64,000 bases of DNA. Source: Bdellovibrionota bacterium. Lineage in GTDB: Bacteria > Bdellovibrionota_C > UBA2361 > OMII01. Within the stretch, counting starts at the first letter, position 1; each line of letters begins with the position of its first letter. Made by a program: the position numbers and the translations under genes. A model generated the notes under the pieces. That model was not told the origin of the DNA. It was given only the letters and a program-made list of their open reading frames with translations, and did no database searches. The stretch spans positions 26,668 through 90,667 of the forward strand of contig JBIKLA010000011.1 of NCBI GenBank assembly GCA_044360075.1. The letters run 5' to 3'. This document shows, in pieces, positions 26,748 through 29,059 of the stretch.

Positions 26748-27089
26748 CTACCTCTTTTTCTGGTCGTTGCCGCCCTCGATGAGCGACGCATCGATCACCA
26801 TCTTGACTGCCTGCTCAACGATCTCACGCTGGCTCTTCGGTATGACCCCCTGAGCAGCGAGCTTTTCAGCCTCTTCCGAGACCAGCGTCATGAGCCGCTC
26901 ACGCTGCTCAAGCGTGATGGCTCCGAGCGGTCCCGCTCCCGAAACGCGCGATACCCCGGACACCCCGCGAACAGAGGCGGCGCCCTTTACCTTGTCGACC
27001 TCGGAGACGTTCTCGGTCGCCTTGACGCCCTTGGTCGACTGGGAAGAGCCTACAGCTCCTATCTTTTTGTCATCTTTTTTCTTGGTCAT
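26748..27089 (-). CDS. small Lys/Val/Ser-rich protein; candidate anti-sigma factor (FlgM-like) downstream of the sigma-factor gene
   Basis: 113 aa with an unstructured N-terminal half and a helical C-terminal 40 aa (LVSEEAEKLAAQGVIPKSQREIVEQAVKMVIDA). It is the immediate downstream partner of the sigma-factor gene. The assignment rests on position and size only. Confidence 0.35.
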   Translation of the reverse strand: MTKKKDDKKIGAVGSSQSTKGVKATENVSEVDKVKGAASVRGVSGVSRVSGAGPLGAITLEQRERLMTLVSEEAEKLAAQGVIPKSQREIVEQAVKMVIDASLIEGGNDQKKR

Positions 27090-27118
27090 GAGTCTGTCGC
27101 TCCAAATGTGAGGATCGT

Positions 27119-27916
27119 TTAACCTGAGGCTCCACGCAACACGTCAGTGAAGGGCCCCTTGGAGCCCTCCTTCTTCAATTTGGCAGTAAGGGTCTTGAGC
27201 CCAGGGCGAACCTTCGGCAAGGGCGCTGGCTTGCCCATCGCCATGCTCTTCTGCAGGTAGGCGATCAGGACCTTGTGCTCACGCATCACGTTAAGCCCGT
27301 CCGTATCCCACTCCGTGGCGACCGTGCGCAAGGACAGCCCATCCCAGTAAACCTTGTACAGGAGCCACTGGTGGAGGGGCTCAAGCGAGGCCATGACCCC
27401 CACCATTCGACGGTAATCGATGAGATCATCTGGAAGGGGATCCGTAGCAACTGCCTGCCTCGTCGCCACGATGCTGGCGCCAACGAGGAGTTCCCGGATC
27501 GCCGATCGCGTGTCGGAGTCGTCATTGCCGCTCGATTCATGCACCGGCAGCCGCCCGTCGCGAAGCTCTGGGAAAACCCCATAGAGCTCTGCAGATATCT
27601 CTCGGGCCTTGGCCTCGGGGGAGCCCTTGCTGGAGCTGCGCGTCCAGCCCTTGGACTTTCGGGCGGCATCAGTGGAAGCCTCGTGAATTCGCTTGCGGGC
27701 GTATCCCTTAAAGGGGATGCCCCGGCTGGGATCAAAGCGTCGGGAGCAGAAGATCAGGGCCTCCATAGCCGCGCCGTCCAGACCATCGAGGCGCCAATCG
27801 AGGTTCCATGACCGCGCCACGGAACGGGCTATGCTTTCAGCCCAGCCGTGGTGCTCGACCACCAGGTTGTTTGCATCCTCTTCTGATAGCCTCTGGCGCT
27901 CAGTCGCACTTCCCAT
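27119..27916 (-). CDS. sigma-70-family sigma factor, group 3 (FliA/sigma-28-like)
   Basis: Region 2 (FDPSRGIPFKGYARKRIHEA) and region 4 helix-turn-helix (LYKVYWDGLSLRTVA); 265 aa. Confidence 0.7.
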   Translation of the reverse strand: MGSATERQRLSEEDANNLVVEHHGWAESIARSVARSWNLDWRLDGLDGAAMEALIFCSRRFDPSRGIPFKGYARKRIHEASTDAARKSKGWTRSSSKGSPEAKAREISAELYGVFPELRDGRLPVHESSGNDDSDTRSAIRELLVGASIVATRQAVATDPLPDDLIDYRRMVGVMASLEPLHQWLLYKVYWDGLSLRTVATEWDTDGLNVMREHKVLIAYLQKSMAMGKPAPLPKVRPGLKTLTAKLKKEGSKGPFTDVLRGASG

Positions 27917-28168
27917 GATTCCCCCTGCGGAGGGCCGTCCCGTTAGACTGCTGCATCTCCACCTTCCAAGATTCCTATCGGCTTAATTCACCAAAAACCT
28001 TAAGCACTTATCTCTCTATCATAGGGGCAAGTAGCAGTTTTTCCAAATACTTATCTTTTTTTAGAAGCACTTATTAATTCCTCGCAGATGAGGGGGTGAA
28101 CGTGCGGTTCGCTCAAATGACCGCATGAACGGTTTTAGCGGGACACACACCACATCGCGAGGAAAACA

Positions 28169-29059
28169 ATGAAGGCATCTCCAGTAACGGCAACGAAGGC
28201 AAAGGTCAGCAACAAGCCATCCAAGAAGCTGGCCGGCCCGGACCGCAATTCCAAGAGCCCTGGAAAGCTCAAGCTCGTAAAGCCGGCGAAGACTGAGGGG
28301 GACGGCGCTCCGACTCCGCTTCAGCAAGAGGCCCTGATCATCAAGTACCGACTCAAGGCGCAAAAGCTCGGCCGCAGCATCATGCGCCGCTGGCATGCGC
28401 GCATGGACCTCGACGAGGTGGACAGCCTCGTAGACCTGTCCCTGTGTGAGGCCGTCAAGCGCTTCAATCCCACCAAGGGAGCGAGCTTTATGACCTTCCT
28501 GTTCTACCACCTCAAGGGAAACCTTGTTCGCTCCGTTGCTGCAGCCGCAGCCGCAAACTCGCTCCCGACCGGGCTCCTCGATGATGAGGGTAGCCCGCGC
28601 GGCATGGGAGATATGATGGGCGAGCTCCAGCTGCGCAGCATCAACTCTACCGAGATCGCGGAGGCGGTAACGAGCCAGGACTCGCCGACACCAGACGAGG
28701 CCCTGTGGCGCAAGCAGCTCCACAGCCAAAGCTCACTGGCGTGCGAGAAGCTCGACCCGCTTGAGCGGGAGATCATCAAGCGTATCTTCATCCAGGAGCA
28801 GCAGATTATGGATATCGCAGCCTCCCTCGGGTACAGCCGCTGCCACATCTCGCGAGTAAAGAAGAAGGCGCTGGAGACTCTCTACGACGAGCTGCGCGGT
28901 TCGATGAATAATGATGACCTCGGACAGCGCCCGTCCTTTGAGGACGATAGCGAGGAGGAGGTCGACCAGCGCATCGCTTGCCGCAAGACCATTCACCGCC
29001 GCCGGCCGCGATCGCGCGCCAAGCGGATCCAGGAGTTCGTCCCGGCTGAAGCGGCTTAA
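28169..29059 (+). CDS. sigma-70-family sigma factor, group 3 (FliA/WhiG-like) with a basic N-terminal extension
   Basis: Region 2 (EAVKRFNPTKGASFMTFLFYHLKGNLVRS) and region 4 (LDPLEREIIKRIFIQEQQIMDIAASLGYSRCHISRVKKKALETL). Confidence 0.7.
   Translation: MKASPVTATKAKVSNKPSKKLAGPDRNSKSPGKLKLVKPAKTEGDGAPTPLQQEALIIKYRLKAQKLGRSIMRRWHARMDLDEVDSLVDLSLCEAVKRFNPTKGASFMTFLFYHLKGNLVRSVAAAAAANSLPTGLLDDEGSPRGMGDMMGELQLRSINSTEIAEAVTSQDSPTPDEALWRKQLHSQSSLACEKLDPLEREIIKRIFIQEQQIMDIAASLGYSRCHISRVKKKALETLYDELRGSMNNDDLGQRPSFEDDSEEEVDQRIACRKTIHRRRPRSRAKRIQEFVPAEAA

Follow-up and report, generated by a model that had tools for sequence, protein, structure and literature searches.

Here we describe a gene trio found in a 64-kb stretch of DNA from an uncultured member of the Bdellovibrionota (contig JBIKLA010000011.1; hereafter the window, in whose numbering all coordinates are given). 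The trio is composed of two divergently transcribed sigma factor genes, sigA and sigB, and a small gene directly downstream of sigA that codes for a protein of 113 amino acids (aa). It constitutes a conserved unit at one border of a gene cluster for what, judged by its gene content, is an injectisome-type type III secretion system (T3SS). Promoters of the TAAA-N15-GCCGATAA (sigma-28) type are present and conserved in front of both sigA and the T3SS operon. We consider the best explanation of this arrangement to be a dedicated transcriptional control module for a non-flagellar T3SS that would comprise a SigA circuit, an inhibitory small partner and a tier governed by SigB, and we give this reading a probability of about one half.

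To place the trio in a wider context, a genome scan was performed with a SigA alignment, which returned 80 species-level loci. All of these loci are from uncultured metagenome-assembled genomes (MAGs) labelled as Bdellovibrionota, Bdellovibrionales, Oligoflexia or "Deltaproteobacteria", and the host clade is uncultured, mostly freshwater Bdellovibrionota. Motif counts in the spacer between sigA and sigB refer to 75 species-level loci with expectations taken from shuffles, T3SS linkage was scored by tblastn within 10 kb in the 49 loci that have at least 6 kb of flanking sequence, and the spacing between sigA and the small open reading frame (ORF) was determined in 70 loci. The ORFs of the window that were scanned for protein families are most, but not all, of approximately 60 candidate genes.

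The sigma factors and the small partner protein

The sigA (27119-27916, minus strand) and sigB (28169-29059, plus strand) ORFs, of 265 and 296 aa respectively, flank a 252-bp spacer (27917-28168) that has a GC content of 47% versus ~60% for the window. A first-pass annotation of this DNA had described a divergent sigma factor pair transcribed from an AT-rich region of ~250 bp with a 113-aa ORF after one of the two genes, and this layout holds, with the small ORF (26748-27089, minus strand) starting 29 nt downstream of sigA. The same three genes are called independently on metagenome contigs that carry the identical locus. The order of a divergent sigB followed by sigA and the small ORF is kept in essentially every one of the 80 loci, down to a SigA identity of 45%. 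Core Sct genes are located downstream of the trio in 35 of the 49 loci scored for linkage, with no T3SS genes detected in the other 14, and in most of the species sampled the trio flanks the T3SS cluster on one side. The earlier placement of the sigma factors beside a non-flagellar T3SS is thereby upheld, as the neighboring gene set is of the injectisome type and synteny in ~80 species supports a functional tie of both sigma factors to that system.

SigA was analyzed against Pfam and NCBIfam, with a profile search of the PDB, with an AlphaFold2 (AF2) model that was searched using Foldseek, and by alignment. In Pfam it is matched by Sigma70_r2 alone with 23.1 bits, just under the gathering threshold (GA) of 24, and its best NCBIfam match is to the FliA_WhiG family (TIGR02479) with 32.8 bits versus a cut-off of 189.6 bits. 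A profile built from 16 SigA orthologs returned only FliA chains from the PDB (E 0.065). The AF2 model has a mean predicted local distance difference test (pLDDT) score of 80 with helices that group into sigma-2, sigma-3 and sigma-4. Its top Foldseek matches (E 0.014-0.05, probability 0.9-0.99) are 1rp3 (the Aquifex sigma-28/FlgM complex), 9wsm (Pseudomonas aeruginosa sigma-28) and 6pfv (Streptomyces WhiG). Given scores that fall below the cut-offs together with sequence and fold matches to FliA and WhiG, SigA appears to be a very diverged FliA/WhiG-like sigma factor that is not a family member by curated threshold. An invariant proline of SigA occupies the position that, by our own mapping, is equivalent to S72 in the specificity loop of P. 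aeruginosa sigma-28. Additionally, SigA carries a C-terminal extension beyond sigma-4 (residues ~230-265) with a conserved PKVRPGLK...GPF sequence and two confidently modeled helices. Canonical FliA lacks this extension, to which the small partner or the secretion apparatus might dock.

SigB was analyzed using the same family databases, alignments, a structure model and a fold search, and it is a group-3-like sigma factor that scores 32 bits with Sigma70_r4 (GA 24.1) and 52.1 bits with the generic sigma-70 family TIGR02937 (cut-off 42.9). Its NCBIfam scores for the SigB/F/G family (50.6 bits) and for the FliA/WhiG family (46.1 bits) are similar. Within the structure model sigma-2 is confident, sigma-4 is moderate and sigma-3 is without confidence. 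The top fold matches are sigma-32, which ranks first, a chain labelled RPSD that we take to be Bacillus subtilis SigD, sigma-S and sigma-28. By these comparisons SigB appears to be equally close to SigB/F/G and sigma-32 and not specifically FliA-like. Both sigma factors align over their full length to sigma factors of groups 1-3, and the identity between SigA and SigB over region 2 is only 27%. Thus, the first-pass description of two sigma-28-like factors stands insofar as both belong to the sigma-70 family and SigA is FliA-like, but with 32.8 and 46.1 bits versus a required 189.6, and with SigB not being FliA-specific, the term "pair of FliA-type sigma factors" is too strong. SigB also has a K/A-rich N-terminal extension (residues 1-50) and a conserved basic tail (residues 270-296; IHRRRPRS...A(E/K)AA) whose final Ala-Ala is invariant in 40 orthologs. 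This invariant end resembles a C-terminal degron of the ssrA type, and so proteolysis may be a means of controlling SigB.

The small ORF is present in every locus that has sequence downstream of sigA, including seven where tblastn missed it. The median gap between sigA and the small ORF is 14.5 nt, and the two genes overlap in 23 of 70 loci, by 4 nt (ATGA) in 12 of them. These observations agree with its earlier designation as a partner gene of sigA, as it is constant and often overlaps the sigA stop codon. Members of the family are 96-142 aa in length. The N-terminal half of the protein is basic (isoelectric point 10.1), of low complexity, mostly composed of G, K, V, S and A, and devoid of aromatic residues. 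The C-terminal half contains a conserved ER-x-x-L...EEA-x-KL...AVKM-x-ID pattern and is helix-prone by composition only.

We searched extensively for relatives of this small protein outside of the trio. No Pfam or NCBIfam match was obtained at E values up to 10, either with the single sequence or with 31 diverse orthologs that extend down to 24% identity. Profiles run against the PDB returned no FlgM or anti-sigma chain, and hhalign gave a probability of 0.5% for a match to Escherichia coli FlgM. Weak profile matches to histone H2B helices were at chance level. When 1.84 billion representative sequences were searched exhaustively with a HMMER profile, 223 proteins were retrieved, all of the same family, and the best 150 of these 223 are mostly ~100-140 aa in length and match from end to end. 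Since this search returned only 223 relatives, with the best ones mostly of the same length and aligned end to end, the small protein appears by sequence to be a closed orphan family. Consequently, the earlier comparison with FlgM cannot be carried as homology, given that Pfam, NCBIfam, PDB, hhalign and the exhaustive search all failed to reveal any relationship to FlgM or to anti-sigma factors. A "FlgM-like anti-sigma factor" is therefore a description by analogy. In that sense the small protein is putatively the cognate partner of SigA and is probably its anti-sigma factor.

Promoters of the trio and of the T3SS operon

A search for sigma-28-type promoters upstream of the T3SS genes, as suggested by the first-pass annotation, identified a GCCGATA promoter before the T3SS operon and also one before sigA. 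When the 64 kb were scanned with a sigma-28-type regular expression, these were the only two correctly placed intergenic matches. The first, P1(sigA), is located at 27975-28003 on the minus strand, 59 nt before the start codon, and is composed of a -35 element (T)TAAGGTTT (28003-27995), a spacer of 12 nt and a -10 element GCCGATAG (27982-27975). Each block matches the sigma-28 consensus TAAAGTTT-N11-GCCGATAA at 7 of 8 positions. In almost all loci of the close clade (~30 species), (G/T)CCGATA is found at a distance of 45-100 nt before sigA. When 13 spacers were aligned using MAFFT, three invariant islands stood out from a background with 44% identity, and GCCGATA is one of them.

The second match, the T3SS operon promoter, is located at 11921-11962 on the plus strand, 55 nt upstream of the first T3SS gene. 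It is composed of a conserved TTGACGCTATC block, CTTGAAA at 11934-11940, a spacer of 14 nt and GCCGATAT at 11955-11962. The arrangement TGTTTGACGCTATC-N3-CTTGAAAACT-N10-TTAGCCGATAT is kept at -61 to -70 in five metagenome loci (L084-L088), in which the first gene is 57-70% identical. The TGTTTGACGCTATC block (11918-11933, plus strand), immediately upstream of the -35 element, is shared by L084-L087 and in part by L088. It could serve as an activator site or as a second promoter element, and it is not followed by a conserved sigma-70 -10 element. A third match to the regular expression (TTGAAGC...N...GCCGATA; 19041-19066, minus strand) lies antisense inside the SctT-like gene and could be either a chance occurrence or an antisense promoter.

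The remainder of the sigA-sigB spacer contains additional conserved elements. Enrichment of k-mers across the spacers identified TGCCGATA in 24 loci (0.4 expected) and TGCTTCA in 31 loci (1.4 expected). A consensus scan revealed a candidate sigma-70-like distal promoter for sigA, P2(sigA), at 28018-28046 on the minus strand (TTGGAA-N17-TATGAT), and a composite of the form GCTTCW...TTGGAA-like-N16-18-TAnnnT is present in 13 of the 75 loci versus 0.22 in shuffles. Between the two divergent -35 elements is a central box (28047-28062) composed of ATACTTATC and a T-tract, the general form of which (GCTTCW-N6-11-WTAAS) is present in 23 loci versus 0.4 in shuffles. On the other side of this box is P(sigB), a rigid two-block element at 28063-28096 on the plus strand, with AGAAGC at 28063-28068, a spacer of 15 nt and GCAGATGAGGGGG at 28084-28096. 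Its general form can be written as (T/A)GAAGC-N15-G-n-n-GA-n-n-RG or as (T/A)GAAGC-N15-GCrGATrAGG. The element with this exact spacing occurs in 46 of the 75 loci versus 0.1 in shuffles, and other spacings are almost absent save for 12 cases at a 3-nt offset that we attribute to an overlapping C-rich block. A position weight matrix scores P(sigB) at 25.5 bits and the next match in the window at 13.0 bits, so that the element is unique in the window.

We infer that P(sigB) is directed toward sigB; it stands back-to-back with the sigA promoter candidate P2(sigA). The CCCCCTTATC sequence was also considered as a sigma-32-type -10 element in the sense of sigA, but there is no conserved CTTGAA 13-17 nt upstream, and the rigid 15-nt spacing to (T/A)GAAGC led us to prefer the promoter in the sense of sigB. 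A sigma-54 reading of the conserved TTGGAA box was likewise rejected, as the GG-to-GC spacing, assessed by eye, is 7 or 14 nt and not 10. The first-pass annotation had drawn attention to three copies of (C/T)ACTTAT(C/T) at 28005, 28048 and 28068, and these are located as claimed. The window contains 5 matches to the motif, compared with an expectation of 2.06, and 3 of these fall within a single 71-bp stretch of the spacer. Only the copy at 28048, which is part of the central box, lies on a block that is conserved across species; those at 28005 and 28068 are not broadly conserved. The ACTTAT repeat is a minor part of the conserved promoter architecture. No RNA family was found in an Rfam scan of 26500-29300.

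The T3SS cluster and its neighborhood

The T3SS genes are located at 12017-20889 on the plus strand and were assigned using Pfam, gene calls made on the same locus and translations. In order of description they code for a 2xFHA protein, an FHA/YscD-like SctD, SctJ, two small ORFs, SctQ, a DUF3313 lipoprotein, SctR, SctS, a SctT-like protein of 192 aa, a short SctU-like protein of 198 aa, an 82-aa protein and a TPR chaperone. Based on the FHA/YscD-like SctD, the SctJ ring lipoprotein, SctQ, SctR, SctS and a chaperone of the TPR class, the encoded apparatus is predicted to be of the injectisome type, and no flagellar genes were found among the window ORFs scanned. The products in the SctT position (19012-19590), which has multiple transmembrane segments, and in the SctU position (19592-20188), which is a membrane protein, have no Pfam match, and the latter may represent only the N-terminal domain of SctU. 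The genes for the 82-aa protein and the TPR chaperone (20207-20889, plus strand) always occur together across loci, and the pair is reminiscent of the needle-subunit or co-chaperone pairs that involve YscG-type chaperones. Divergent from the T3SS operon is a gene for a receiver-only response regulator of 125 aa that has no output domain (11411-11788, minus strand). A receiver-only gene is present at this same border of the cluster in the distant loci L034, L036, L046, L051, L053 and L057.

The region from 11.4 to 29.1 kb contains this orphan receiver protein, the T3SS set, four proteins without a family match and the sigma factor trio. Outside of this region the window is composed of housekeeping genes such as prs, rplY, pth, rpsF, rplI, mreB, rng, gidB, bamA, lptFG, cmk and tyrS. 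One of the genes located between the T3SS set and the trio codes for a conserved 453-aa protein (22711-24072, minus strand) that a synteny table shows at 63-76% identity in the close clade. It has no assigned function and no match in Pfam, NCBIfam or the PDB, including a PDB sequence search. In close relatives the gene for this protein comes right after the small ORF in the same orientation, and so it may be the third gene of a sigA operon. The window differs from its relatives in that a 788-aa ORF (24335-26701, plus strand) is inserted on the opposite strand between the small ORF and the 453-aa gene. This ORF has no homologs beyond 21-26% identity, and its product could be a lineage-specific effector. 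One MAG, JBIIDM01, contains two SigA-family loci on different contigs (L061 and L068), of which L061 has no detectable sigB upstream of sigA. This pair suggests that the trio module has been duplicated in some genomes.

A proposed control circuit, its alternatives and related systems

In the circuit that we propose, SigA would have descended, with strong divergence, from the FliA/WhiG (sigma-28) lineage. Its gene would be co-transcribed, and often translationally coupled, with the gene for the orphan 113-aa protein, which would bind SigA in a fixed proportion and keep it inactive as an analog, and not a homolog, of FlgM. Expression of sigA would be served by the sigma-28-type P1(sigA) and probably also by the distal sigma-70-like promoter. 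In the simplest form of the circuit SigA would read the GCCGATA promoters, providing positive autoregulation as well as driving expression of the T3SS operon. Release of SigA from the 113-aa protein may occur via export through the T3SS as happens with FlgM, for which the BtrA/BtrS system discussed below would be an injectisome precedent. SigB, produced from its own divergent rigid promoter, would probably function at another tier of the same cascade. To the observed gene identities, synteny and conserved promoter motifs this circuit adds three inferred elements, namely the pairing of sigma factor and promoter, the binding of SigA by the small protein and the release through export. Taken in its strongest form, the proposal would state that an injectisome has kept or re-invented the sigma-28/FlgM logic, with SigA driving both the T3SS and itself, a disordered 113-aa brake that is exported and SigB as a further tier. 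We regard the proposal in this complete form as rather doubtful.

Several observations weigh against a SigA-based control module. Both SigA and SigB fall far under the FliA/WhiG cut-off of TIGR02479, and neither FlgM (PF04316) nor any anti-sigma family shows detectable homology to the small protein. SctV, the SctN ATPase, the SctC secretin and a full-length SctU with its cytoplasmic domain were not found among the scanned ORFs of the window. Since these components are missing from the cluster, the T3SS is either split across the genome, with the absent genes possibly located elsewhere, or reduced. Furthermore, distant clades keep the trio without having GCCGATA at the sigA and T3SS sites, and a search in these clades for a replacement motif common to the sigA and T3SS upstream regions revealed nothing recurrent. 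Because the distant clades have lost GCCGATA with no shared substitute found, co-variation does not settle which sigma factor reads these promoters.

This last point is relevant to a first alternative, in which a canonical FliA encoded elsewhere in the genome acts as a global "attack-phase" sigma factor that reads the GCCGATA promoters. SigA and SigB would then constitute more specialized downstream tiers of that cascade that act on targets of their own, with the small protein perhaps still being the partner of SigA. In Bdellovibrio bacteriovorus the sequence TTAAG-N16-CCGATA is present in 66% of 140 mapped attack-phase promoters and has been attributed to canonical FliA (PMC3627812). The T3SS operon promoter (TTGAA-N16-CCGATA) and the sigA promoter (TTAAG-N17-CCGATA) would suit a Bdellovibrio-type FliA equally well, and this near-identical consensus is why a FliA encoded elsewhere could read them. 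The invariant proline of SigA at the position of S72 would also fit this alternative, as would the loss of GCCGATA at both sites in distant clades. However, no canonical fliA was seen in the window or in any of the loci examined, the two GCCGATA promoters of the window are confined to the trio/T3SS locus, and genes of the fliA type are commonly autoregulated from sigma-28 promoters, which fits with SigA reading its own P1. We consider this alternative to be possible but on balance unlikely.

A second alternative concerns the 113-aa protein, which may not be an anti-sigma factor at all. It could instead assist SigA as a positive co-factor or stabilizer, be DNA-binding or histone-like, or simply share the operon as a substrate or accessory protein of the T3SS. 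Its lack of homology to anti-sigma families is in line with any of these roles, and the basic low-complexity N-terminal half together with the chance-level matches to H2B helices would also fit a nucleic acid-binding function. As the conserved 453-aa gene follows in the same operon in close relatives, the sigA operon is not a simple sigma/anti-sigma pair. On the other hand, the small ORF strictly co-occurs with sigA and frequently overlaps it at the start and stop codons across ~74 species, as is classically seen for a partner that binds stoichiometrically. A small protein encoded right after the gene of an alternative sigma factor is most often an anti-sigma factor. A role other than that of an anti-sigma factor is thus credible but not the one that we favor. 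Finally, that T3SS adjacency is incidental, with the sigma factors belonging to a flagellar or general stress regulon, is very improbable, as against the housekeeping neighbors on the sigB side (gidB and a methyltransferase) and the 14 loci without nearby T3SS genes stand the location of the trio at a T3SS border in most species sampled, the same promoter type before sigA and the T3SS operon, and the absence of flagellar genes noted above.

The proposed SigA module can be compared with several known systems, the first being FliA/FlgM of flagella. The similarities are that the best sequence and fold matches of SigA are FliA and WhiG, that promoters with a TAAA-like block, ~15 nt and GCCGATA precede the sigma factor gene and a type III secretion operon, and that a partner of ~100 aa is encoded with the sigma factor and has an apparently disordered N-terminal half and a C-terminal half that by composition is helix-prone. 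In contrast to FliA/FlgM, the apparatus is of the injectisome type and not a flagellum, and the module includes a second sigma factor. SigA scores far below the thresholds of the family and is extended at its C-terminus, homology between the small protein and FlgM is not detectable, and export of the partner is a proposal.

The first-pass annotation had suggested that a secretion-coupled checkpoint on an injectisome-like apparatus would be notable. This concept is not new since it is known from Bordetella, where the anti-sigma factor BtrA (BspR) is exported by the T3SS and antagonizes BtrS at the Bsc injectisome, so that secretion is tied to T3SS expression (PMC10732220, PMC6483047, PMC7498569). 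The locus described here is similar in having a sigma factor at an injectisome locus with a proposed exported antagonist, the latter being a proposal from the genes. It differs in that BtrS is an extracytoplasmic function (ECF, group 4) sigma factor with the partner-switching proteins BtrU, BtrV and BtrW, whereas SigA and SigB are group-3-like and the promoters are of the sigma-28 type. The scan of neighboring ORFs revealed no partner-switching domains of the STAS, PP2C or kinase type. Moreover, BtrA is ~190 aa in length and is unrelated in sequence to the 113-aa protein.

A FliA-family sigma factor alongside a non-flagellar T3SS is also found in Chlamydia, which is non-flagellate, has a non-flagellar T3SS as its only such system, and codes for a sigma-28 (RpsD/FliA homolog) that is a recognizable family member. 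Chlamydial sigma-28 is said, in work by Shen et al. from 2006 (as cited in PMC3627812), to read GCCGATA-type promoters, and this resembles the situation described here. In contrast, the chlamydial gene lies away from the T3SS locus, and no FlgM-like partner of its product is known. B. bacteriovorus is not known to have an injectisome. As regards the promoters, the FliA of that species offers the nearest parallel in that it is from the same phylum, uses a near-identical consensus and serves many non-flagellar genes (PMC3627812). The difference is that its FliA is a canonical sigma-28, while in the window this promoter type precedes a T3SS operon as well as a divergent FliA-like gene that has a private partner.

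Injectisomes are thought to be derived from flagella. The injectisome regulators described so far, which include AraC-type activators, ECF sigma factors and sigma-54 activators, are not known to be related to the flagellar sigma-28/FlgM checkpoint. A survey of the literature also found no paper on such a sigma factor/T3SS system in Bdellovibrionota. If the proposed module is correct, then a secretion-coupled checkpoint based on a group 3 sigma factor would operate on a non-flagellar T3SS throughout an uncultured clade of a predatory phylum, and it could be a regulatory relic of the transition from flagellum to injectisome. What would be new is a sigma-28-derived version of such a checkpoint that has an orphan partner and a second sigma factor. 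The locus defines two new sigma factor subfamilies, one new family of orphan partners and three explicit promoter motifs, and these motifs and proteins are open to testing in vitro with no need for a culture of the organism. It provides a concrete test case for flagellar-style, secretion-coupled control of transcription on injectisomes and for the divergence of sigma-28 specificity.

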